The position numbers were made by a program, and so were the translations under genes. The notes under the pieces are model-generated. The model searched no databases. It worked only from the letters and a program-made list of their open reading frames with translations, and was not told where the DNA came from. A stretch of 64,000 bases of DNA from Candidatus Magasanikbacteria bacterium RIFOXYD1_FULL_40_23. Lineage in GTDB: Bacteria > Patescibacteriota > Patescibacteriia > Magasanikbacterales > GWA2-37-8. Where the stretch lies: contig MFRA01000005.1 of assembly GCA_001783215.1 (NCBI GenBank), positions 29,845-93,844 of the forward strand. Direction: 5' to 3'. Below are positions 9,500 to 62,390 of this stretch, in pieces (position 1 is the stretch's first letter; each line of letters opens with the position of its first letter).

Positions 9500-9697
9500 T
9501 ATATAAGACAGCTAATAATTACAAAACCAATTGTACATAATTACCCGTGTTTTGTCAAGGTAAGTGAGTTTTATCCCCAAAAACAATCTATCCACACCTT
9601 GTCCCCAGTCTTTCCCCCACCTGTTTTTGGCTAACTATTGGACACCTAGCTTTATTATGTTAAGATTAAAAAGTTAAATAATAAAGGTTCTAAAAAT

Positions 9698-11098
9698 ATG
9701 TCCAACCACGAAATATGGCAAGCTGTTTTGGCAGAATTGGAACTTACCATCTCTAAACCAAACTTTGTTACCTGGTTTAAGAATACAGATATCCTATCCT
9801 ACCAAGACAATTGCGCTGTATTGTGCGTACCCAATGACTTCAACCGTGCCTGGCTAGAGAAAAAATACCACCACATGATTGTAACTTCTCTAGAGAGAGT
9901 AACCGAAAAACCAATCAAACGACTAGAATACAAGATATATAATATAAAAAACATTGTTCCAGAAAGCGCTGTTGTAGAAACCAAAACAGAAAATGTTTCC
10001 CAAGAAACACCTGTGCTTTCTCCTGTTTTTACTTCTTCCGAAGTGTCTGCCCCTCCAAGAGTGGGTGAGTTTGGCTTAAATCCAAAATATGTTTTTGAAA
10101 CTTTCGTAGTTGGCGGTGGATCCGAACTTGCTTATGCAGCCGCTCAAGCCGTAGTAAACAAACCAGGCGAAGCCTACAACCCACTATTTATCTACGGTGG
10201 CGTAGGTTTAGGCAAAACCCACTTGGTACAAGCTATCGGCAACCATCTACTCAAAGCCAGACCAAATATAAATATCATGTATGCCAGCGCCGAAAAGTTC
10301 TCTAACGACTATATCTCTTCTGTTCGAGACGGCAATGCCAAAAACTTTCAAAACAGATACCGCAATATAGACGTACTTCTTATAGACGATATTCAATTTA
10401 TCTCTGGCAAAGACAAAACCCAAGAATCTTTCTTCCACACCTTCAACGAATTACACCAACAAAACAAACAAGTAGTAATGACTTCTGACCGACCACCAAA
10501 AGCTATTCCTGCCCTAGAAGACCGCCTAAAATCCCGTTTTGAATGGGGTATGATTGTAGATGTGGCTCCACCAGAACTAGAAACTAGAATAGCTATTCTG
10601 CAGAAAAAAAGCGTAGAAAAGAACTTTCATCTTAACCAAGACATTTTGCAATTGGTGGCCACCACTATCCACCGCAACATCCGCGAACTAGAGGGCGCAC
10701 TAAACAAAATTATCGCGGTTCACCAGCTAAAAAACATGGAACCTACTATGGAATCGGTAAAGGCACTACTAGCCAACACCGAAATGCGTTCGGCATACAA
10801 ATCTATTACCCCTCAACAGATTATAGACGCGGCCAGTGAATTCTTTACAATCAATACTTCCGATCTACTTGGCCAAAGCCGAGAAAAGAAATTCTCTCAC
10901 CCTCGCCAAATTATCATGCACCTAATGCGCAAAGAACTTAACATGTCTTATCCGGCTATTGGCAACGAGCTTGGCGGAAGAGATCATACAACCGCTATGC
11001 ATGCCGACAACAAAATAAGCACAGAGATAGAACAAGACCTAAAACTAAAACAAGAAGTAGAGCTAATAAAACAAAAGCTTTATATAAACATTACCTAG
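9698..11098 (+). CDS. dnaA: chromosomal replication initiator DnaA
   Basis: 466 aa. AAA+ Walker A GGVGLGKTHL, DnaA domain IV, and the MSNHEIWQAVLAELELTIS N-terminus. Confidence 0.93.
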   Translation: MSNHEIWQAVLAELELTISKPNFVTWFKNTDILSYQDNCAVLCVPNDFNRAWLEKKYHHMIVTSLERVTEKPIKRLEYKIYNIKNIVPESAVVETKTENVSQETPVLSPVFTSSEVSAPPRVGEFGLNPKYVFETFVVGGGSELAYAAAQAVVNKPGEAYNPLFIYGGVGLGKTHLVQAIGNHLLKARPNINIMYASAEKFSNDYISSVRDGNAKNFQNRYRNIDVLLIDDIQFISGKDKTQESFFHTFNELHQQNKQVVMTSDRPPKAIPALEDRLKSRFEWGMIVDVAPPELETRIAILQKKSVEKNFHLNQDILQLVATTIHRNIRELEGALNKIIAVHQLKNMEPTMESVKALLANTEMRSAYKSITPQQIIDAASEFFTINTSDLLGQSREKKFSHPRQIIMHLMRKELNMSYPAIGNELGGRDHTTAMHADNKISTEIEQDLKLKQEVELIKQKLYINIT

Positions 11099-11218
11099 TT
11101 GTCATTCCGACCGAGCCTTTAGGCGAGTGGAGGAATCCCTTAAACTTAGTATTTGCAACTACCAGGTATAAGGGATCCCTCGACGGAGTTTATGCCCCGA
11201 GGGGTGCTCAGGATGACA
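11099..11218. repeat. inverted pair of GTCATYC...GGATC repeat units (family R) immediately after the dnaA stop
   Basis: GTCATTCCGACCGAGCCTTTAGGCGAGTGGAGGAATCCCT ... AGGGATCCCTCGACGGAGTTTATGCCCCGAGGGGTGCTCAGGATGACA. Confidence 0.6.
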
Positions 11219-11225
11219 AATCCAC

Positions 11226-11517
11226 AGTTAATAATCAGTGGATAACCGATGTATAACTACCAAATATTTGCACCACTTATACACACTACTTACAACTTAT
11301 TCACAACCAATTACAAAATAATATTTTATCCCCACACCTTATTAGTCAAACACCAACAACTTACCCACAACACAAAAATCTAAAAACCCGTTTGGATAAA
11401 CAAGAATTCTGACTTATACACTTTATCCACTGCTATATAGTAACGATTGGAATTTATATATAAATATATAACGATATAATAATAGACAACTAAAAGTTTA
11501 CCCACTAGTTAAATTTT
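11226..11517. other. candidate oriC: DnaA-box cluster plus AT-rich unwinding region between dnaA and dnaN
   Basis: TTATCCCCA, GTTTATCCA (rc), TTATACACA x2, TTATCCACT and TTACCCACA x2, followed by ATTTATATATAAATATATAACGATATAATAATA. Confidence 0.6.
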
Positions 11518-12639
11518 ATGAAATTTTTCTGCACAAAGGAGAACCTATCAAAATCGTTGGCTCTAGTAATTGGAGTCGCTGGCAAAAACATTAACCTGCC
11601 AATCTTGGGTAATGTTTTAATTAAGGCTAGCGAACAAAAGGTAGAGTTTATGGCCACCAACCTAGAATTGGCTATAACTTCCAACCTTCGTGCCAAAGTA
11701 GAGGTACCAGGTACATTTACCGTGCCTGCCCGAACTCTAAACGATTTTGTAAACCTATTGTCGGAAGAAAAAGTAGAGTTGTCTTTAAAAGACAACGAGT
11801 TAGAAGTTGTATGTGGAAGGTCTTCTACACGCATAAAAGGCGCCCCAGCCGACGAGTTTCCTGTTGTGCCGGTAGTAGGTGAAGGTAAAGGTTATGTAGT
11901 AGATATAGAAGCATTCAAAAGTGGTTTGGGGCAAGTGTTCCAGGCTGCATCCAAAAACGAAATAAGGCCGGAATTAGCGGGTGTGCTGTTTAATTTCAAC
12001 GAAGATCAAGGAAGCCTAACAATGGCCGCCACAGACAGCTATAGACTGGCAGAGAAGAAGATAAAACTAATCCAAGGCGAAGAAAAATCCAGAGTGATTA
12101 TGCCAGCTCGCACAGCTCAGGAGATAAGTCATATTTTGATTTTGTCCAAAGGGTTAGAGAATGAAAGGAATGTACGACTGTTAGTTACAGAGAATCAAGT
12201 AATCTTGCGTTGTAACGACGTAGAGTTGGTATCTCGTCTGGTAGATGGCCAGTATCCAGATTACACTCAAATTATTCCAAAAGAGTTCAAAACTTCAGCC
12301 GAATTTTCTACCAATCAAATTACCAAAGAAATAAAAGCAGCTAGTTTGTTTACCACTATCGGTATAAACGCTGTAAGTTTTGATTTTGATCCAACCAGTG
12401 GTGTAGTTACGGTTTCTTCTGTGTCTACCCAAACCGGCGAACACAAATCCGAACTACAAGCAGAAATAAAAGGAGAGAAAAATAATACCCTTCTTAACCA
12501 CCGTTATGTGCTAGACGGCTTGGCTAATATAGATACAGAAAATGCAGTGCTCAAAGTAATTAATGCCGATAGCCCATGTGTACTTGCGCCAAAAGGCGAT
12601 CAAAGCTTTGTTTATATTGTGATGCCGATACGACAGTAA
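11518..12639 (+). CDS. dnaN: DNA polymerase III beta sliding clamp
   Basis: 373 aa, three-domain clamp. N-terminus MKFFCTKENLSKSLALVIGVAGKNINLPILGNVLI. Confidence 0.9.
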   Translation: MKFFCTKENLSKSLALVIGVAGKNINLPILGNVLIKASEQKVEFMATNLELAITSNLRAKVEVPGTFTVPARTLNDFVNLLSEEKVELSLKDNELEVVCGRSSTRIKGAPADEFPVVPVVGEGKGYVVDIEAFKSGLGQVFQAASKNEIRPELAGVLFNFNEDQGSLTMAATDSYRLAEKKIKLIQGEEKSRVIMPARTAQEISHILILSKGLENERNVRLLVTENQVILRCNDVELVSRLVDGQYPDYTQIIPKEFKTSAEFSTNQITKEIKAASLFTTIGINAVSFDFDPTSGVVTVSSVSTQTGEHKSELQAEIKGEKNNTLLNHRYVLDGLANIDTENAVLKVINADSPCVLAPKGDQSFVYIVMPIRQ

Positions 12640-17360: not shown

Positions 17361-17775
17361 CCCCACTTCTTTAGTAGAAGTGGGCAAGAATCGCTCACGG
17401 TGGAAAGGTTCAGGAAATTTAGGACTCATTTTCTTTAATTTTCAAAACTCAACAGCTTTTTATTCGCAAAAAGCTGTCTCAAACATTGAAAATTTCCTGC
17501 GAAGGAACACTCAAACTCATCTCTAAATTTTAACTTCACCTTTCCAAAGTTCGCCTGGACAATCGACGGACAACGATTCGCTATCCGAGCACATGGTGAG
17601 TGATGCTACTGGCCACGGTGAGGGGGGGGCGGTGCCTTTTTTAAGGCACAGGTAGTCATAGGGTAGTTTGCTGATTGACTGCCTGAGTAAACCCGAACCG
17701 ATTGGCAGTAGCAGAGCGAGACATCAGCTCGGAAACTTTTCCCTCCAGCTTTTGGTTTCAAAAGGTGGAAAATGG
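17361..17775 (+). ncRNA. copy 1 of an unclassified ~430-nt structured repeat/ncRNA candidate (appears 3'-truncated relative to copy 2)
   Basis: About 80% identical to 61940-62355 over conserved blocks. The stem in the 5' hairpin differs between copies in a compensatory way (CCCACUUC/GAAGUGGG here versus CGCUUUC/GAAAGCG in copy 2) with an identical UUUAGUA loop. There is no ORF. Confidence 0.5.
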
Positions 17776-20902: not shown

Positions 20903-21286
20903 TTATACTTCTTGAGTAATGGTTTTTTTGCAGCTCATGCAGGAACTAGAAGTTGGGCGAGCGAGAAGACGTTTTTCTTCGATTGGTTTTTTGCAGTATT
21001 TACAGATACCATAATCTCCCTTTTTCAATCGTTCCAAAGATTGGTTGGTGTCGCGCAAAGATTTCTCTAGGTTTTCTTCTAGCGATAGATTTACTACATA
21101 GTCTGCTACCTCGGCAGCGTTTTCATCTTCTTTGTCACCATAATCAGGGAAGGCAGTATCTCCATCCGCGGCATTATTTTTAGAAAATTTAGCCATTTCT
21201 CTGTCTAGTCTGGCTTTTTCTTCCAAAAGCAGAGCCTCTATTTTTTTGAGTAATTCTGCAGAATAAGGTGATTTTATCTTTGTCAT
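20903..21286 (-). CDS. DksA/TraR-family C4 zinc-finger protein
   Basis: C-terminal CKYCKKPIEEKRLLARPTSSSCMSCKK plus an N-terminal coiled coil. Confidence 0.7.
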   Translation of the reverse strand: MTKIKSPYSAELLKKIEALLLEEKARLDREMAKFSKNNAADGDTAFPDYGDKEDENAAEVADYVVNLSLEENLEKSLRDTNQSLERLKKGDYGICKYCKKPIEEKRLLARPTSSSCMSCKKTITQEV

Positions 21287-21469: not shown

Positions 21470-21943
21470 TTAATCAAGTAGTGGTTTCTGGCGCATTACT
21501 AGCCACCCATACTCCTCGCCAAGCTTTGCATGTTCGTAGAATTGACGCATTGGTCTGGGCGCTAATCCCTGGTCAAATCCGAAGATATATGGTGTGTTTG
21601 TATGTTCTCGCTTAACCAAAACGATTATCGGGTGGTCAAGGTAGATTAGCCCCAAAGACAGAGCTATGAGATGGCACTGCTCAAAGGCAAATGCTCTGGC
21701 TAGATGTTCTTCATCTGGAGTCAGAAGCCTATAGCCAAGGCTTTGCAGCTTAAACGACGCTTCGCTTGGGGTGGTCTCGCTCTGGAAATGGTGTTCGTAT
21801 AGCTCCCATTCGGTGGCATGCAAAGGCACGTCTGGTCCAGGAATATTGAAAATAAGCCTTTGCGCCATAGGCTGGCGTGCACATCCTAGAGCCAGAAAGG
21901 CGAAAACGATGGTAGAAAGAGCAAGATTGATCCGGTGGCGCAT
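21470..21943 (-). CDS. hypothetical lipoprotein in a GC-rich islet; SD-led (GGAGGT)
   Basis: Lipobox FLALGCA. GGAGGTCCAAC ATG. GC content is elevated compared with the surrounding host DNA. Confidence 0.5.
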   Translation of the reverse strand: MRHRINLALSTIVFAFLALGCARQPMAQRLIFNIPGPDVPLHATEWELYEHHFQSETTPSEASFKLQSLGYRLLTPDEEHLARAFAFEQCHLIALSLGLIYLDHPIIVLVKREHTNTPYIFGFDQGLAPRPMRQFYEHAKLGEEYGWLVMRQKPLLD

Positions 21944-22389
21944 GTTGGACCTCCGTGTGTAGGGATTAAACAGCCTTTTTCAATTTCAAGCAAGTATATT
22001 GGCAATAGGGGGCTTCGCCGCATATATTCTCATTCACTCGGAAATAGTTTGGCAAACCAACTGTTTCACTCATTCACTTCGAATATTAAAAAAGGCGATC
22101 ACCCTCTAAATCAATTTGCATTGGTACAGAGGCGGATCGCCTTTACGTTGATACTACTAAGGGGAGGTACTTTCCCCTTTACGGGGAACATGTACTCTAC
22201 CTACCTTGGGTAGTATTAAAATTGACCTCAACCGCTTGTGGGTAGAGCCCTGGTGTCTTGACCCGAAGGTCTCGACTAATTAGGGTTGCCCGGGAAGAAG
22301 TTGGGCGTGCCATTGTTTCTCTGTTTTCTACAGATAACAGTTGCATACCCGCTTTCTCTTTTACAGTTTGAGAGTCATTATCTGCTTAG

Positions 22390-22640
22390 GAGCAGACTAG
22401 ATAAATTGTAGAATGAACTACATAAGTAAGTATACACTATTTTTAGTGTTTTGTCAACACGTTTGTATACACTAGTATACACAAATGCTTTTTTGGCTAA
22501 TCATAAACAAAATTATTATTTCTTATCCACATTGTAAGTGAGTTATACCCAGGCTTATCCACAGTTGTATAGACTTGTGTATACAAAAAAAGATTAGTTA
22601 TCCACTTTTCAGGTGTTTATAATTGACAAAATACAATTTT
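22390..22640. promoter_or_regulatory. dense secondary cluster of DnaA-box-like motifs (at least 7), 11 kb from dnaA
   Basis: TTATCCACA x2 (perfect), TTATCCACT, TTATACCCA, and TGTATACAC/TTGTATACA x3-4. Confidence 0.5.
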
Positions 22641-22682
22641 TCTTATAACAATACCTTACGCAAATCACAAAGAGGGGGATTT

Positions 22683-23216
22683 ATGGAAACTTGGAGTGTT
22701 TCCAGGGTGTTTGCTTCTACGCGAGTAGTTGGTTTGTTTCTTCCCGGACAAATATTTTCCGTAAAGGATAAGTTTGTTGTTGGGTGCGGTCCCAGTACAC
22801 CCATCAGGTTTAATTGGGTAGTTGACCGGTTCCTTTGGTACTTTGGTATGGTTCCTTATTTAGTAGAGCATGGAGTTGTGCTACTGGAATGCCATGTATT
22901 GGCGAAGGAGTTCACTAGCACCAAAGACATGTTCAAGGCTGTTGGTGGCCCAGGGGATCAAGATGCCTTTGTTACCGTTCCAGAGGTATATGCCCTGCTG
23001 TTGGGCCATGCTGAGGATAGAGAGAACTGCGCACTATCTAGTAATCATGGGAATATCTTTTTTCTTCAGGGAACGCACGAATCGTCTTGGATTTTGAATC
23101 TAACCTGGTGTGAGAACTCTGGCTGGATTGTTACCTTTTGTGAGAGCCTTATTCCTCACAATTGGCTAAAAAATCAGAGAGTCTTCTCTCGTCACAAGTT
23201 CAAGCCGGCAGTATGA
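22683..23216 (+). CDS. hypothetical protein in a GC-rich islet; SD-led (AGAGGGGGA)
   Basis: Start trimmed to the ATG that follows the strong SD (METWSVSRVF...). The track ORF begins at 22623. Confidence 0.45.
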   Translation: METWSVSRVFASTRVVGLFLPGQIFSVKDKFVVGCGPSTPIRFNWVVDRFLWYFGMVPYLVEHGVVLLECHVLAKEFTSTKDMFKAVGGPGDQDAFVTVPEVYALLLGHAEDRENCALSSNHGNIFFLQGTHESSWILNLTWCENSGWIVTFCESLIPHNWLKNQRVFSRHKFKPAV

Positions 23217-23251: not shown

Positions 23252-23290
23252 CGGCCGCCTTAATCCCTTCGGGATAGGGCGGCATTTTTA
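23252..23290 (+). terminator. rho-independent terminator
   Basis: GCCGCCTTAATCCCTTCGGGATAGGGCGGC ATTTTTAT. Confidence 0.7.
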
Positions 23291-23298
23291 TAATTGAA

Positions 23299-23465
23299 AT
23301 ATAGGTAAACCATATTTACTCGCACGCTCGGAAAAGTACATAAATGTACTTTTCGCTCACTTTGCTTGTAAATGAATGAGGAAATAGTTGGTTTACCAAA
23401 CTATTTCCGAGTGAATGAAATTATATGTAAAACTATATAATTGTAATATAGGTAAACCATATTTC
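23299..23465 (+). promoter_or_regulatory. copy G of the ~85-nt leader element family; not fused to a real gene and flanked by 19-bp perfect direct repeats
   Basis: ATATAGGTAAACCATATTT is repeated at 23299-23317 and 23447-23465. Between them are Box1 ACTCGCACGCTCGG, an 11-bp perfect IR GAAAAGTACAT/ATGTACTTTTC, Box2-like GCTCACTTTGC, then ATG opening a 22-codon ORF that contains a 10-bp IR GGAAATAGTT/AACTATTTCC. Confidence 0.5.
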
Positions 23466-32977: not shown

Positions 32978-33364
32978 TTAAGATTTGTTTGCTTCCTGCG
33001 TATTTGCATAGTGTAGCATTCCATCTCGCATATATTCGGCCAGACCCACAGCCACATTTTCGTAGTTGGCTTTGAATCGCGGGTCGTCCACATACATTTT
33101 GGCCATGCCACGGTACATTTGTAAGTTTGGTTCATAAAATGCGCGCAGGCCGTCGTAGTGTCTGGTAATTAATTTTTGTACTTCTTCGCTTTTTGGAGCT
33201 AACCCATTTTTCATTGCGGCTGCAATTTCTTGGGTTAGCGCGCCAGCTTCTTCTAGTACTTTGGCCAGCCCAGCTTTGCCCATCTGTTTTACTCGTTCTT
33301 GGGATTGCTTAAAGGCCTCGGTATGGCCCCAGCGTTGTTTGGCTTCTTCGGTATATATTTCCAT
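32978..33364 (-). CDS. stand-alone TipAS-like antibiotic-recognition domain protein
   Basis: MEIYTEEAKQRWGHTEAFKQSQERVKQMGKAG... is a TipAS-like N-terminus. Leader element F immediately precedes it. Confidence 0.6.
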   Translation of the reverse strand: MEIYTEEAKQRWGHTEAFKQSQERVKQMGKAGLAKVLEEAGALTQEIAAAMKNGLAPKSEEVQKLITRHYDGLRAFYEPNLQMYRGMAKMYVDDPRFKANYENVAVGLAEYMRDGMLHYANTQEANKS

Positions 33365-33448
33365 ATTTGAAATGAGTGAAATAAGTAATCAAATGTTTTG
33401 GTTACTTATGAGCGAGTGAGAATATATGCGGCTTTAGCCCCTATCTCT
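33365..33448 (-). promoter_or_regulatory. leader element F (-10-like TATATT / Box1 CTCACTCGCTC / hairpin ATAAGTAA..TTACTTAT / Box2 CACTCATTTC / aaATG) in front of the TipAS gene
   Basis: Gene-sense reading: ATAGGGGCTAAAGCCGCATATATTCTCACTCGCTCATAAGTAACCAAAACATTTGATTACTTATTTCACTCATTTCAAATATG. Its distal part also encodes the last 12 codons of the MerR ORF. Confidence 0.6.
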
Positions 33449-41490: not shown

Positions 41491-41572
41491 TATAGGGGCT
41501 AAAGCCACATATATACTCATTCGCTCGTAAATAATAAAACAAGTTTGATTATTTAACTCACTCATTTCGTAT
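41491..41572 (+). promoter_or_regulatory. leader element A (TATATA / Box1 ACTCATTCGCTCG / hairpin / Box2 ACTCACTCATTTCG / tatATG) in front of the LUD-domain gene
   Basis: TATAGGGGCTAAAGCCACATATATACTCATTCGCTCGTAAATAATAAAACAAGTTTGATTATTTAACTCACTCATTTCGTATATG. Confidence 0.6.
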
Positions 41573-44273: not shown

Positions 44274-44660
44274 TTAATTGAAATTTATATTAAAACTAAA
44301 CATTCCCATAGAGCACATTCCGCGAATGCTGGTGCCGGCCTTTTGCGCGGGCACATCTACCAAAGTCTCTCCGGAAGGTGGTAAATTTTTTCTATAATTT
44401 AGTGCTGGGATTACGAGAGATGAAGAGCAATCGAAAGTTCCTCTGGTATCTATCTTTATTACCGTGGGCATATCGGCTTTGGCATTGGTAATTCGTGGAG
44501 TATATCCACCCTTGGCGTTTATAGTTATAATCTGTTTGCCGTCTTTGATTTTTATATTATTGGCGCTAGGACCGGTATCTTTTTCTCCGCCAGAAAATAG
44601 TATAGCGCCGGTAATTACGGCAGCCACGAAGATAAAAATGGCAATAAAAGTTTTTTTCAT
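44274..44660 (-). CDS. secreted cupredoxin-like (PF13473-like) protein, copper-island member
   Basis: Signal/TM, then IKIKDGKQIITINAKGG...IRGMCSMGMFSFNINF. Leader element C precedes it. Confidence 0.3.
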   Translation of the reverse strand: MKKTFIAIFIFVAAVITGAILFSGGEKDTGPSANNIKIKDGKQIITINAKGGYTPRITNAKADMPTVIKIDTRGTFDCSSSLVIPALNYRKNLPPSGETLVDVPAQKAGTSIRGMCSMGMFSFNINFN

Positions 44661-44750
44661 ATGCGAAGTGAGTGAGTAAAATATTTAGCTTACTAAAGTA
44701 TTTTCGAACGAACGAGTATGTATGTGGCTTCAGCCCCTATATTAAAAATT
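44661..44750 (-). promoter_or_regulatory. leader element C in front of the cupredoxin-like gene
   Basis: Gene-sense: AATATAGGGGCTGAAGCCACATACATACTCGTTCGTTCGAAAATACTTTAGTAAGCTAAATATTTTACTCACTCACTTCGCATATG. Confidence 0.6.
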
Positions 44751-48630: not shown

Positions 48631-48969
48631 TTATTTACTCATCATATTTTTCATTGTCCCGCTGCTTTCTGATGCTTTTATATTTTCTTTCATATATTTT
48701 TCTCCCATCATTTCCATATCTTTTCCTTTGGAAACAGCCCCATCATTTTTTAATTCCATTCCCATTTCTTGCATCATTGAGCCGCCTGTTTTCATCATAG
48801 TAGCCATTGTTTGAATAGAGGCTGATTGTTCTTTCATCATGGCAATTGAATCCTGCAGCTCTTTGGTTTGAGCGCTATTATTATTTATATTTTTTCCAGA
48901 TGAATAACCAATGCCTCCGCCAACAGCGAGGGCAATAATTATTCCGATGGTGAATGTTGTAGTTTTCAT
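48631..48969 (-). CDS. Met-rich secreted protein (putative periplasmic Cu(I)-binding, MxM/MMxxM motifs)
   Basis: Signal peptide, then MMKEQSASIQTMATMMKTGGSMMQEMGME...MEMMGEKYM...MKNMMSK. Confidence 0.45.
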   Translation of the reverse strand: MKTTTFTIGIIIALAVGGGIGYSSGKNINNNSAQTKELQDSIAMMKEQSASIQTMATMMKTGGSMMQEMGMELKNDGAVSKGKDMEMMGEKYMKENIKASESSGTMKNMMSK

Positions 48970-49043
48970 ATGTGAAATGAGTGAATATAAAGTTAAATGT
49001 TTTTAACTTTATATGAGCGAATAAGTATATACCTTAGTATATT
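48970..49043 (-). promoter_or_regulatory. leader element D in front of the Met-rich protein gene
   Basis: Gene-sense: AGGTATATACTTATTCGCTCATATAAAGTTAAAAACATTTAACTTTATATTCACTCATTTCACATATG. Confidence 0.55.
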
Positions 49044-52501: not shown

Positions 52502-54259
52502 TTACATTTCCATTCCACCCATATCTTTATCCTTGCCCGACTTAGCAGGAGTAGAACCGGCGCCCTCTTTTGGAGCAGTTTTTATAAGATCATCAAGAAA
52601 CATATTTTCTTTTATTTCCGGTGTGGGATTTTGTATATAACGGTCACCATTCTTAAGTCCGGCATATACTTCCACCACAGCTCCGAGAGTGCGGCCAATG
52701 GTTATTTCTTGCGCAAATATTCTATCGGCTTCTGATATTGCCCATACTACCGGTGTTCCTTTTTCGTTCCAAAGAATTGAGGAATATTTAATTAACTCAA
52801 CAGCAGAGCTAGAAGGAGAAAGTACTCTTATAGAGGATCCCACGGGCCATTTTGTTGATTCTATAAAAATAGCATCAGCCATATATGAACCATCATCAAG
52901 AGAACTACCCACGCCTACAAGCCGTACCTTTTTTATATCGGTTCCAAAACCGGGACGAACGATAGAAAGCAGCTCTCCGATTTTTGGTTTTTGTATATTA
53001 TTTGGCATGCTTATTCTTACTAGTTCATTGCCATTATCATTTGCAGTTACAGTAGCTACTGGCATGCCCGGACCCACAAACTCACCTGGTTTTTTCATAA
53101 TACTAGATATGACACCGCTATTTGGCGCAACTATGGAGTAGCCGCCGCTGATTGAGCCCCTAACACTCGCATAAGCTGTTTCATTGGCGACGACATCTCC
53201 TTCCGACATGGCTAATTCTTTTTCTAACTCGGCAATCATTGCGTCTATCTCAGCCAAGGTATCAATGGATTCTCTTTGTGTATTAACACTTTCCAGTTCC
53301 ATGCTTTTAATTTCACCAAGCATGGCGACAAATTCTGACTGATCTTCAACCAGCATTTTTTTGAGTGTTTCCAGATCGGCTTCCATTAATGTTTCCATAT
53401 CAGCAATAGATGCGTTTGCAAGTTTAATTGCGCTATCAAAGTATAGAGATCCCGAGCGCTCTATTTCTTTTAGATCAAACAATGCCTTGTAAGTAATGTT
53501 GGGGAAATTATTACGCAAATTTTGATCTAAGATTCCGAATGTAGGTTTAAGTGGGATGCTAAAAAATAATCCGGCGGAGGGAATTCTACTTTGGCCATAC
53601 ATCATCGAAAAAGTTTTTGTGATTGATCCATTCAAAACCACTTGCGCCAATTTCTTTTTTGATTCAATTGAAGATAGCAAAATATTTCCGCTTGCGGACG
53701 TGTTTGATCCGATTAAGCCTATTTTTTGTTTATTTGAGCTTTCTGTATCTATACGAAGCTTTTGCAGTTGTGCAATTCTTTTGGCTGTATAAGTGCGTAG
53801 AGCCTCTACGCTCGTACGTGCTTCGGATAACATCTGAGATTTTTCCGAGAGCATGCTTACCATCTCCGGTGTTTGTGGCGGTCGTGAAAGTTTTCCGATA
53901 ATTTGACCTGCGGTGACGCGCTCGCCAATACGCACATACCACCTAGAGATAGTTCCCTCACGATCGGGTTGCACCTGTAAATTATTAAGAGAAATAATTT
54001 CTCCGGGCCATGAATTGTTTGAGGTGCCAGTAATTGAAAAATCCTCTTTTCCAACTATGGCTACTACTGGGCTGTCTGTAATTAGGTTGCTACTAGCAGA
54101 TTTACTATCTGCTATATTTGCTGATGCGCTTTTGCTTATAGAATAGAAAGCAAAGACCCCGGTAGCTATAACTAGCAAGATTGAAACAGATGCTATTGTA
54201 AGCGCCCGTTTTTCTAGCAGCTTAACACTCTGTATTAGGTTTTTTATTTTTTCTTTCAT
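52502..54259 (-). CDS. cusB: RND periplasmic adaptor (membrane fusion protein, CusB-like) with a Met-rich C-terminus
   Basis: N-terminal TM, biotinyl/lipoyl-like GEIISLN...GQIIGKL, C-terminal ...KDMGGMEM. Confidence 0.7.
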   Translation of the reverse strand: MKEKIKNLIQSVKLLEKRALTIASVSILLVIATGVFAFYSISKSASANIADSKSASSNLITDSPVVAIVGKEDFSITGTSNNSWPGEIISLNNLQVQPDREGTISRWYVRIGERVTAGQIIGKLSRPPQTPEMVSMLSEKSQMLSEARTSVEALRTYTAKRIAQLQKLRIDTESSNKQKIGLIGSNTSASGNILLSSIESKKKLAQVVLNGSITKTFSMMYGQSRIPSAGLFFSIPLKPTFGILDQNLRNNFPNITYKALFDLKEIERSGSLYFDSAIKLANASIADMETLMEADLETLKKMLVEDQSEFVAMLGEIKSMELESVNTQRESIDTLAEIDAMIAELEKELAMSEGDVVANETAYASVRGSISGGYSIVAPNSGVISSIMKKPGEFVGPGMPVATVTANDNGNELVRISMPNNIQKPKIGELLSIVRPGFGTDIKKVRLVGVGSSLDDGSYMADAIFIESTKWPVGSSIRVLSPSSSAVELIKYSSILWNEKGTPVVWAISEADRIFAQEITIGRTLGAVVEVYAGLKNGDRYIQNPTPEIKENMFLDDLIKTAPKEGAGSTPAKSGKDKDMGGMEM

Positions 54260-54372
54260 AATCGAAGTGAGTGAATTAAATAATGTAGGAGAAAATAATG
54301 AGCTTGCTCAATTATTTTCGAGTGGATTATTTATGAGCGAATGAGATTATATGGGCCTTAGCCTCTATAAAT
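54260..54372 (-). promoter_or_regulatory. leader element E (perfect TATAAT / Box1 CTCATTCGCTC / long hairpin / Box2 CACTCACTTCG / attATG) in front of cusBA
   Basis: Gene-sense: TATAGAGGCTAAGGCCCATATAATCTCATTCGCTCATAAATAATCCACTCGAAAATAATTGAGCAAGCTCATTATTTTCTCCTACATTATTTAATTCACTCACTTCGATTATG. Confidence 0.6.
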
Positions 54373-54934: not shown

Positions 54935-55105
54935 GTCAAGTGTGGATAAATATATAAATAAAAAACAACTCCGTTAGGAATTGTTTTTTAAATTTGTAAT
55001 TTCATGGAGGAGGCATTAGTGGAGCCAATTGTTTAGCTTAACTAATGCGCGCTCCTCCATGAATGTATCTGTTAGAGCGCGCCGACAACTGTGTCGGGTG
55101 GCGTT

Positions 55106-55864
55106 CTAGGCCACGGCGGCCATGATGCTGGACTGCTCGAACTTGGGGTTCGTCAGCAGGGCGAAGATCCGGGCGAAGCGCTCGTGGCCGAGCTCGCTGG
55201 ACTGCCACCCCTTCTGGTCCAGCTCGGCCTGCGTGTACTTCTGGGCGCAGGAGCCGTTGCGGGCGATGGTGACGTTGCCGTCCTTGTCGATGTGGTAGAC
55301 GGTGGCGCTCTTCTTCTTGGCACCATCGAGGAACACCAGGGCGATCAGCATGCCGCCGCTGACCTTCCAGATGACGGGGGTCATCGCCATGTTGGTGGCG
55401 TTGAACTCGTCGGTGGCGGGGTCGTTCTCCATGACCTTCCCCTGGAGGGCGGGCAAGCTGCCCGGGTACTGGAGGGAGACCGTGGTCTCGCCGGCGGTGA
55501 TCTTGATGGTCTCCATCGGCTGCGCGTTGCGCTTCTTCTGGGCCTTGTCCAGCCGGTGACCCACCAGGAGCCAGTGCCGCATGTTGCGCAGCTCCTGCCG
55601 CTCCCAGTAGGGCGAGCATGCCTTCTGCCGGATGCCGAAGTTCAGCTCGATCTTCGCCGCGACCTCGGGGCACATCGGGCAGACGATCCCGCTCCGCTCG
55701 TTGTGCAGGAACGGGCGCTTGCCACCCATGCAGAGGAAGTAGCTGTAGTTCTCGAGCGCGTACAAGGCGCCGGTCTCGGTGATGGCCTTCGTCGTGAAGG
55801 TCTGGCGCATGGTGCGCGCGTGCGAGGGGGTGAGCTTGTACGAGTCCTGGCTCATGGTGATCAT
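55106..55864 (-). CDS. hypothetical Cys-containing protein encoded in a very GC-rich block; strong SD (AAGGAGA)
   Basis: AAGGAGACTGCT ATG ATC ACC ATG. Balanced amino-acid composition, whereas the overlapping ORFs 55038-56048(-) and 55091-55960(+) are Arg/Ala/Gly/Pro artefacts. Cys-containing motifs FLCMGG, CPMCPE and KACSP. Confidence 0.5.
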   Translation of the reverse strand: MITMSQDSYKLTPSHARTMRQTFTTKAITETGALYALENYSYFLCMGGKRPFLHNERSGIVCPMCPEVAAKIELNFGIRQKACSPYWERQELRNMRHWLLVGHRLDKAQKKRNAQPMETIKITAGETTVSLQYPGSLPALQGKVMENDPATDEFNATNMAMTPVIWKVSGGMLIALVFLDGAKKKSATVYHIDKDGNVTIARNGSCAQKYTQAELDQKGWQSSELGHERFARIFALLTNPKFEQSSIMAAVA

Positions 55865-56036
55865 AGCAGTCTCCTTGGCGGTCGAAACGTCGTGTTGGTA
55901 ACCCTGAAACAGGGTCACCTATGGAAAAAATGGGATTTCTCCCTGTTTTGGAGGCCCTAATTAAGGCATCTAAAGCAGGGAAAAACCGTGTTTTAGTGAT
56001 AAATTGTAAAGAAAATGTTGCATATAGCAACCAAAC

Positions 56037-56069
56037 AATATACCACAAAAAAGCCCTTTTGTCAACCCC
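56037..56069 (-). promoter_or_regulatory. sigma70-like promoter (GGGGTTGACA / 17 nt / TATATT) on the minus strand, reading toward the GC-rich gene
   Basis: rc of 56060-56065 is TTGACA; rc of 56037-56042 is TATATT. Confidence 0.45.
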
Positions 56070-61879: not shown

Positions 61880-62390
61880 TAATCCACCTTTTGTAACTAC
61901 AACTCATCACCCCATTTTGTCAGCAAAAACATCTTTGCCGCTTTCTTTAGTAGAAAGCGGCGGAAAGAATCGCTCACGGTGGAAACTATCGGATAATTTA
62001 TGACTCATTGTCTCTTCCGCCCTAAACTCGCTTGCGAGCTCAAGCATAGGGCGGATTCCGCCAAGGAACCGTTCCAATTCACCTATAAATTGCACCGCTA
62101 GTTTCCAATGTTCGCCTAGACAATCGACGGACAACGGCTCGCTATCCGAGCATATGGCGAGCGATGCTACTGGCCACGGTGAGGGTGAGCAGTGCCTTCT
62201 TTAAGGCACAGGTAGTCATAAGGTAGTTTGCTGATTGACTACCTGAGCGAACCTGAGCCGATTGGCAGTAGCGGAGTGAGACATCAGCTCGGAAACTTTT
62301 CCCTCCAGCTTTTGGTTACAAAAGGTGGAAAACGTACTTCTACTAAAGAAGTGACAAGTAAAAGGTTTTTGGTTCCAAAAGGTGGAAATG
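61880..62390 (+). ncRNA. copy 2 (apparently complete) of the unclassified ~430-500-nt structured repeat/ncRNA candidate
   Basis: Conserved blocks shared with 17361-17775. 5' hairpin CGCUUUC-UUUAGUA-GAAAGCG. A 3' segment CUUCUACUAAAGAAG is complementary to the 5' hairpin arm. A flank CCACCTTTTGTAAC (61884) is complementary to GGTTACAAAAGGTGG (62320). Internal hairpins are preserved with a G-U to A-U change between copies. Confidence 0.5.

Follow-up and report, generated by a model that had tools for sequence, protein, structure and literature searches.

In the genome of Candidatus Magasanikbacteria bacterium RIFOXYD1_FULL_40_23, a stretch of 64,000 nucleotides (the window, whose positions are used throughout) contains a canonical replication origin between dnaA and dnaN and, about 11 kb away at 22390-22640, a second dense cluster of DnaA boxes. 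What is this second cluster for? The initial annotation, made from the letters of the window, suggested that it might titrate DnaA, regulate a promoter, or be a second, relic or element-borne origin. The analysis presented here favors, at a probability of roughly 0.55 as judged from sequence comparisons, the reading that a non-coding RNA (ncRNA) has its promoter controlled by a conserved DnaA-binding module at 22458-22610, which would also serve as an origin-proximal DnaA sink. The elements of the module are listed below in their order along the window, starting with the promoter that it adjoins.

22429-22457, minus strand: sigma-70-type promoter of the ncRNA, with the -35 hexamer TTGACA at 22457-22452, a 17-nt spacer and the -10 hexamer TATACT at 22434-22429
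22464-22483, no strand: palL, the proximal 20-bp palindrome, TGTATACACTAGTATACACA, 6 bp beyond the -35 hexamer
22490-22513, no strand: IR2, a second conserved inverted repeat, TTTTGGCTAA-N-TTAGCCAAAAT, from the module alignment
22523-22531, plus strand: DnaA box 1, TTATCCACA, perfect in the perfect-match scan
22543-22551, plus strand: DnaA box 2, TTATACCCA, two mismatches, 3 bp upstream of box 3
22555-22563, plus strand: DnaA box 3, TTATCCACA, perfect, followed by GT and then by palR
22566-22585, no strand: palR, the distal 20-bp palindrome, TGTATAGACTTGTGTATACA, starting 102 bp from the start of palL
22598-22606, plus strand: DnaA box 4, TTATCCACT, one mismatch, 16 bp upstream of the rightward -35 hexamer

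The sequence of the cluster is as first described, including the two perfect TTATCCACA boxes at 22523 and 22555 on the plus strand and the TTATACCCA and TTATCCACT boxes at 22543 and 22598. Perfect copies of TTATCCACA are found in the window only at 22523, 22555 and 54941, while 0.47 would be expected by chance. The TGTATACAC-type boxes that were also listed exist as motifs (the GTATACAC type, at 22429, 22464, 22474, 22566, and 22577), but most of them do not stand as separate boxes. The one at 22429-22437 overlaps the minus-strand -10 hexamer (22429-22434) and is not kept as a box in relatives, and the others are halves of the 20-bp palindromes at 22464-22483 and 22566-22585.

When sliding 250-bp segments were scanned with three definitions of the DnaA box, the boxes at 22523-22606 formed the second-densest region of the 64 kb, behind the dnaA-dnaN oriC. 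Allowing at most one mismatch to TTATCCACA, there are three boxes per 250 bp in the cluster, seven in oriC and 0.11 in the background; with at most one mismatch to TTATNCACA the corresponding numbers are seven, eight, and 0.33, and with at most two mismatches to TTATCCACA both cluster and oriC contain nine. Since the cluster is second only to oriC under all three definitions it is real and far above chance, and the comparison with background density that had been proposed as a check thus comes out well in its favor. Taken across all loci, box density is 11.9 per kb in the module and about 0.42 per kb in the background, and as the background rate is slightly overestimated for some short loci, this roughly 28-fold enrichment is conservative. 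The DnaA protein of this genome contains the Bac_DnaA_C domain with the motifs HPRQ and GGRDHTTAMHA, which we take to match the E. coli contact residues R399 and D433-H439; judged by its sequence, domain IV is canonical. The third perfect box of the window, at 54941, adjoins an open reading frame (ORF) of 336 amino acids (55038-56048, minus strand) without a Pfam match, and the 1-kb stretch around this ORF has a GC content of 0.608, by far the highest in the window.

The locus was compared across related genomes, as had also been suggested at the outset, and the cluster proved to be conserved with an RNA as its constant partner. The comparison comprises a main clade of 14 sequences and three diverged lineages (L086-L088), 17 lineages altogether. 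The species representatives L012, L013, and L018 were retrieved using guaB as an anchor, ten metagenome contigs using a pattern made from the invariant core of the RNA, and the distant lineages L085-L089 through the adjacent DksA-like protein; L011 and L090 are the same sister lineage. A unit of palindrome, DnaA boxes, palindrome, promoter, RNA, and dksA-like gene recurs in the 17 lineages. In the lineage alignment the order read rightwards in the window is -10, -35, palL, IR2, box 1, about 11 nt, box 2, 3 nt, box 3, GT, and palR, and the unit from palL to the RNA is present in the 14 main-clade sequences; beyond palR conservation ends abruptly. L086, L087, and L088, in which the DksA-like protein is 64-66% identical, have the same unit with a TTGACA-17-TATAAT/TATAGT promoter, a diverged homologue of the RNA and the dksA-like gene.

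A perfect TTATCCACA is kept between the palindromes in 16 of the 17 lineages, and the boxes persist while the spacers vary. The site of box 1 holds a DnaA-box-like 9-mer in most relatives, with turnover (TTATCCCCA, TTGTCCACA, TTATCCGCA); L011 and L081 have an extra inverted CTATCCACA in this region, and the site is poor in L018, L075, and L078. Box 2 is nearly invariant within the main clade, and box 3 is invariant in 13 of its 14 sequences. Box 4 is shared with L011 and has an inverted equivalent in L079 and L013, but its conservation goes no further. Better boxes make up the tandem pair in L086 (TGTGGATGA-atc-TGTGGATAA) and in L087 (TGTGGATAA-atc-TGTGGATAA), the latter being two perfect boxes that abut the distal palindrome, and L088 has four convergently oriented boxes enclosed by two identical repeats. 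That boxes are kept through changes in number, position, and orientation fits what selection for DnaA binding predicts, and from these alignments they are under strong purifying selection in the 17 lineages. The geometry is also regular. Boxes 1-3 are co-oriented, the palindromes start 101-103 bp apart in 15 lineages, which corresponds to about ten helical turns, and in 12 lineages the -35 hexamer is 63-65 bp from box 1 and 95-97 bp from box 3.

The palindromes belong to a family with the consensus TGTATACACTAGTGTATACA. The consensus of palL in the module alignment is TTTGTATACACTAGTATATACAAA, and this palindrome has no other occurrence in the 64 kb; palR is perfect (TGTATACACTAGTGTATACA, in its aligned form TGTATACACTAGTGTATACAAA) in nine lineages. 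The right arm of IR2 is degenerate in this genome, while the exact 10-mer TTTTGGCTAA is found in only three copies in the window (9024, 9625, and 22491), the one at 9625 falling in the region upstream of dnaA. Palindromes of the form T-GT-N-AC-A are typical operators of the GntR family. The locus might be an operator array for one or several factors recognizing GTATAC-type palindromes, where the likeness to DnaA boxes is incidental or secondary. This would agree with the palindromes being its most invariant elements and unique to the locus, with their halves (GTATACAC) being only weak relatives of the DnaA box, and with the two copies being identical within each of the genomes L087 and L088, as co-evolution with a dedicated protein would give. 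However, it leaves unexplained why a perfect TTATCCACA is found in 16 of 17 lineages despite the turnover in position, number, and orientation. By our estimate a perfect 9-mer would arise by chance in the spacer of about 80 bp roughly 1e-3 times per lineage, and the turnover fits selection for DnaA binding rather than for one fixed composite operator. An array for factors other than DnaA is thus considered unlikely.

The constant partner of the module lies to its left, on the minus strand:

22088-22421, minus strand: structured ncRNA gene of about 335 nt outside the Rfam families, identified by fold, covariation, promoter, and terminator
22088-22144, minus strand: intrinsic terminator of the ncRNA, with arms at 22091-22144 and the U-run at 22093-22088 (inverted repeat I5)

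This is the GC-rich stretch which had been noted as noncoding and hairpin-containing, correctly so, and as foreign, while it turns out to be an ancestral structured ncRNA gene. The RNA has a 5' hairpin and a second, variable hairpin, then a three-way-junction core, a variable 3' hairpin capped by a GNRA tetraloop, and the terminator. Its minimum-free-energy fold on the minus strand has z = -6.9 compared with shuffled controls. In a 14-sequence alignment (A2) the consensus structure has 75 predicted pairs with 95.3% of the cells paired, and compensatory changes are found at 32 pairs, while shuffled alignments gave 14.6 +/- 2.4 (0/500) and controls with slid partners 5-11. The core strands of the junction, CCCAACUUCUUCCCGGG and CCCACAAGCGGUU, are invariant, as are the ten closing pairs of the terminator stem (AAAGGCGATC / GATCGCCTTT); the terminator, helix 16, is invariant in 13 of the 13 sequences covering it. 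The promoter matches the consensus at 11 of 12 positions in the scan, with a predicted transcription start near 22421, and TTGACA, the 17-nt spacer, and a -10 of TATAAT, TATAGT, or TATACT recur at the same place in almost every relative, weaker forms being found in L079 and L082. In L011 the RNA is 98.6% identical although its homologue of ORF177, the first gene on the other side of the module, is only 65% identical. Judged from these features, the RNA is a structured ncRNA of about 335 nt that stands alone, has a strong promoter, and is absent from Rfam.

Gene callers place a 49-amino-acid ORF in this stretch, but a protein-coding reading was ruled out as no ORF is conserved across the lineages in frame, strand, or length. 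Rfam gave no match at the gathering score over the window and no credible hit when the cutoff was relaxed to E<=10 for queries of 2.4 kb and 371 nt, and ARAGORN found no tmRNA. The RNA was also compared by eye with the conserved regions I and V of RNase P, helix 8 of the signal recognition particle RNA, tmRNA, and 6S RNA. A likeness to RNase P ('AGAAAGCGGGC', 'ACAAGCGGUU') is superficial and contradicted by the helices that covariation supports. Using nhmmer with a profile of the RNA no matches were obtained on the more distant guaB-anchored loci L014-L021 or on L085-L086, and the diverged homologues in L086-L088 were recognized via the module and then by alignment. None of the viral contigs matched the core pattern. 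When the RNA was paired by RNAduplex with the translation-initiation regions of the window, dnaA and its neighbors did not stand out, and no extended complement to its CU-rich strand exists elsewhere in the window. A literature search returned nothing relevant on a DnaA-linked ncRNA or a Magasanikbacteria RNA motif.

To which side of the module does the regulation belong? On the far side from the RNA the window has the following two features:

22623-22652, plus strand: putative sigma-70-type promoter of ORF177, with TTGACA, an 18-nt spacer and AACAAT, 10 of 12 matches in the scan
22683-23216, plus strand: ORF177, a lineage-restricted orphan with the Shine-Dalgarno sequence AGAGGGGGA

The initial annotation implied that a DnaA-regulated promoter here would be that of the gene at 22683. 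The boxes might indeed chiefly regulate the rightward gene or genes, ORF177 in this genome, in parallel with the autoregulation of dnaA in the rpmH-dnaA region. The layout is similar to that upstream of dnaA, TTATCCACT lies just upstream of the rightward -35, and in L012 a second downstream ORF carries TTATCCACT inside its promoter spacer. However, the rightward gene is not conserved. Depending on the lineage, the position is occupied by ORF177, a member of a family of about 85 amino acids, another orphan, or a metallophosphatase; elsewhere a convergent methyltransferase gene ends there, and L088 lacks a divergent gene altogether. Among the relatives the rightward promoter shifts by 25-85 bp relative to palR, and box 4 is limited to a few lineages. 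Control of the rightward gene as the chief function is therefore regarded as quite unlikely. What always accompanies the module is just the RNA promoter and, past the RNA, the dksA-like gene. As the module is inherited with the RNA, keeps a fixed spacing to its promoter in the main clade, and stays while the rightward gene is replaced, it is best read as belonging to the RNA. A DnaA-regulated promoter is supported as a class, with the RNA on the opposite strand as its probable target instead of ORF177.

On this anatomy, conservation and phasing, together with the structure of the RNA and the position relative to the origin, a scheme may be proposed in which DnaA occupancy, the direction of regulation, and the role of the RNA are the conjectural parts. 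A strong sigma-70-type promoter reads the RNA to the left, starting at about 22421 and ending at about 22088. DnaA would occupy the high-affinity boxes 1-3 and, probably together with a dimeric factor on both palindromes, form a phased or looped nucleoprotein complex. This complex would set the transcription rate of the RNA according to the level or the nucleotide state of DnaA, and in this genome the extra TTATCCACT box by the rightward promoter probably puts ORF177 under the same control. The cluster would also sequester DnaA soon after initiation; being only 11 kb from oriC it is duplicated right after initiation, and an origin-proximal DnaA sink would follow from this.

Whether the cluster is itself an origin can be judged from its relation to the established one:

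11218-11517, no strand: canonical oriC between dnaA and dnaN, with seven boxes of at most one mismatch and an AT-rich stretch

The canonical origin is as it was first described. The seven boxes lie at 11237-11431 and are followed by the AT-rich stretch before dnaN (11518-12639), while dnaA is found at 9698-11098 with rpmH, rnpA, and yidD upstream of it on the minus strand. An inflection of the skew near 22.5 kb had been suggested as a check on a second origin; instead, the cumulative GC skew is lowest at 11-12 kb and does not change sign at 22.5 kb. Because the gene orientation switches at the module, the GC skew of each gene was regressed jointly on replication side and coding strand. The optimum for the origin was 10.5-13 kb with an R2 of 0.545 (replication term +0.09, strand term +0.085), whereas an origin at 22.5 kb gives 0.40, and the minus-strand genes at 13.7-21.9 kb still have non-negative skew.

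A second, relic, or element-borne origin of the iteron-like kind, with repeats plus DnaA boxes, would be in keeping with the two repeats of about 20-24 bp that flank the boxes, with the switch in gene orientation exactly at the module, and with the negative supercoiling that divergent promoters would bring to the region. Iteron plasmid origins such as those of pSC101, RK2, and P1 have direct or inverted repeats of about 20 bp and DnaA boxes within about 150 bp. In contrast to these, the module has only two repeats, no rep gene, no conserved AT-rich element and no plasmid similarity, and it sits in a conserved chromosomal synteny from dksA to guaB. DnaA-trios are absent, as at most two of the nine triplets after box 3 fit a trio, and the module alignment contains no conserved AT-rich unwinding element beside the boxes, since the sequence beyond palR is not conserved. 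The genes near the module are the dksA-like gene, orphans, and guaB, with no rep or initiator gene among them, and nothing similar to the module region was found in plasmid, phage, and viral collections. Neither a second or relic origin nor the origin of an integrated element is thus borne out, and an origin at this site is disfavored as very unlikely. More generally, the case shows that calling a further DnaA-box cluster close to an origin a second origin requires both a strand-corrected skew test and comparative data.

The orientation switch is in itself a feature of the region, as genes to the left of the module lie on the minus strand and those to the right on the plus strand. In the segment 13690-22421 all long genes but one, and the ncRNA, are on the minus strand, and with oriC at about 11.4 kb they are therefore transcribed head-on to the replication forks. 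No parS site (TGTTNCACGTGAAACA palindrome) was found above chance. No ParB domain was detected in the scanned ORFs of the window (11.5-17.3, 29.3-32.9, and 60.3-64 kb excluded), nor among the precomputed Pfam hits for the genes of locus L001, which covers about 12.7-33.2 kb of the window.

Judged from its sequence, the site is a DnaA-box cluster (DBC) outside oriC, set apart by the twin-palindrome bracket and by being joined to the gene of a novel structured ncRNA. For B. subtilis it was found that DnaA binds stably only where 4-10 boxes are grouped locally, and that the DBCs are situated near oriC, regulate adjacent genes, sequester DnaA, and are conserved in relatives (Ishikawa et al. 2007, PMC2533591). 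The module is similar to the oriC-proximal DBCs in being intergenic and close to oriC. Such clusters have 4-10 boxes with at most one mismatch to TTATNCACA, including TTATCCACA; counted in this way, with at least four boxes required, the module has seven boxes per 250 bp, two of them perfect, and as to conservation in related genomes it is found in 17 lineages, 16 of which have a perfect box. It differs in that two copies of a 20-bp palindrome, at a fixed spacing of 102 bp, enclose the boxes, and in that the regulated unit would be a large structured ncRNA and not a protein-coding gene; DnaA occupancy, moreover, is something that we infer here.

In E. coli datA the identities and spacings of the boxes are under selection (PMC4585315). 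It lies beside the stable-RNA operon glyVXY and is affected by transcription there (PMC10950094). Loci of the datA type inactivate DnaA by stimulating hydrolysis of its bound ATP. Like datA, the module is a DnaA-box cluster outside oriC that adjoins an RNA gene. However, datA is about 1 kb long and the module about 125 bp; transcription reads into datA, while the RNA here is transcribed away from the module; and datA needs an IHF site between its boxes 2 and 3. The IHF consensus WATCAANNNNTTR was not found on either strand of the 14 main-clade modules, this consensus being that of E. coli, which may not suit the phylum. The E. coli sites DARS1 and DARS2 have a compact three-box core with conserved spacing outside oriC (PMC4585315), as the module does, but their rules for box orientation and their flanking IHF and Fis sites are not matched; DARS function is the release of ADP. 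Within the window, the same elements recur in the divergent rpmH-dnaA region at 9553-9640, where the minus-strand rpmH -35 (TTGACA) is accompanied by three co-oriented plus-strand boxes (9571, 9588, and 9599) and by TTTTGGCTAA at 9625. This region differs from the module in having no GTATAC palindromes, in the reversed order of boxes and TTTTGGCTAA, and in having dnaA as its partner.

The main rival to promoter control is a site of the datA, DARS, or DBC type, which would titrate DnaA or change its nucleotide state and be linked to the RNA only indirectly, for example through negative supercoiling supplied by the promoter or through mere inherited linkage. The high-affinity tandem boxes in a phased array 11 kb from oriC would suit such a site, and so would the arrangement of palindrome, boxes, and palindrome, which keeps its 101-103-bp geometry though the distance to the promoter shifts by about 70 bp. 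The location of datA next to a stable RNA also agrees with it, as does the conservation of the datA and DARS sites and spacings for fitness (PMC4585315). Against it stand the lack of an E. coli-type IHF site in any lineage scanned and the number of good boxes, which is only 2-4. Further, the module occurs only together with the RNA promoter, and lineages without the RNA (L085 and L089) lack it too. A dedicated site of this type is put at odds well below even. Titration as such nevertheless stays among the two best-supported of the classes proposed at first, as the boxes are under selection in 17 lineages and lie 11 kb from oriC.

Several observations weigh against DnaA-dependent control of the RNA promoter. 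The boxes are situated 65-110 bp upstream of the -35 hexamer, and in L078 and L086-L088 the whole module is about 70-80 bp farther away from the promoter, so that no strictly fixed position close to the promoter is needed. In L081 the RNA is kept although box 3 and palR are gone. L085 and L089, with a DksA-like protein that is 64-66% identical, have neither RNA nor module, and the unit is therefore dispensable in relatives. The palindromes, not the boxes, are the most conserved elements of the module, and the window contains no candidate gene for a regulator binding them, the regulators found being MerR-like and TrmB-like only. Finally, a role in transcription and a role in titration are not separable by sequence alone.

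The genes around the module touch on the proposal that the cluster abuts a GC-rich foreign islet. At 20903-21286 on the minus strand lies a gene for a DksA/TraR-type zinc-finger protein, which has a TTGACA-17-TAAAAT promoter of its own. Wherever a lineage has the RNA, such a gene comes after it in the same orientation, and this linkage may have a functional basis. The remaining features are:

21470-21943, minus strand: ORF157, a lineage-restricted orphan whose signal sequence is lipoprotein-like, inserted where the ncRNA and the dksA-like gene would otherwise adjoin
23290-23465, no strand: lineage-specific insertion of about 175 bp belonging to an intergenic repeat family, absent from L011/L090 and L010

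Among 5.8 billion proteins ORF157 has five homologues, all in close relatives, and it is absent in L012, L013, and L018, where dksA directly follows the RNA. ORF177 has only two homologues in the same collection (65 and 60% identity), both in close relatives, and its family is restricted to this genome and two sister lineages; it is also 100% identical to a protein of RIFOXYD2_FULL_39 (contig MFRD01000031.1, assembly GCA_001783315.1). An AlphaFold2 model of ORF177 from a three-sequence alignment had a predicted local distance difference test score (pLDDT) of 37.8 and is unusable. Pfam gave no match for ORF157, ORF177, or the variable downstream ORFs of the relatives. The GC contents are modest, 0.487 for ORF157, 0.445 for the RNA, and 0.453 for ORF177, compared with 0.401 for the window. 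The idea of a foreign islet fails, as both RNA and module are ancestral and just the ORFs on either side are recent.

Between the module and guaB lies a hotspot where small orphan ORFs, none with a Pfam match, differ from lineage to lineage. They are found at 4681-5898 in L012, at 5466-5894 in L013, and downstream of palR in L018, L076, and L080-L084, and include the family of about 85 amino acids (KILLVEAD...HGY.LVFLGN..YPDAA) and the families 'EAVGPKN' and 'LRVEP'. A mobile element with 47-nt terminal inverted repeats (22021-22067 and 23381-23427) was considered and rejected, as both arms belong to a genome-wide repeat family and the right arm sits in the insertion of about 175 bp that is missing from sister lineages. 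In this copy the insertion is flanked by a 29-bp direct repeat. The family is dispersed between genes and resembles miniature inverted-repeat transposable elements or repetitive extragenic palindromic sequences, with a core CTCATTCACTCG plus hairpins. Its copies are located at 22005-22083, 23311-23427, 33355-33444, 41492-41539, 44651-44683, 48960-48992, and 54250-54282. Another noncoding element, of about 390 bp, occurs twice, at 17383-17772 and 61962-62332, with 83-92% identity. It has no Rfam match, and on either strand the GC-rich 3' half folds well (z = -4.1 and -3.9); the element could be a repeat or else a further unclassified RNA.

A bolder version of promoter control can be put forward only tentatively. 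The RNA might represent a new class of large structured ncRNA within the DnaA regulon of these ultra-small bacteria, gated by DnaA and its palindrome-binding partner in a looped complex, and might act on growth or replication control, for example via its invariant CU-rich junction strand or as a ribonucleoprotein with the DksA-like product. If so, the circuit of replication initiation would include an RNA arm, one for which no counterpart has been described.

The bacteria of the candidate phyla radiation are uncultured, and their replication control and regulatory RNAs are almost uncharted; the locus provides a concrete case. If DnaA does control the RNA, the role of DnaA as a transcription factor would extend to a large ncRNA, and this RNA would be a candidate for a cell-cycle-linked regulator.

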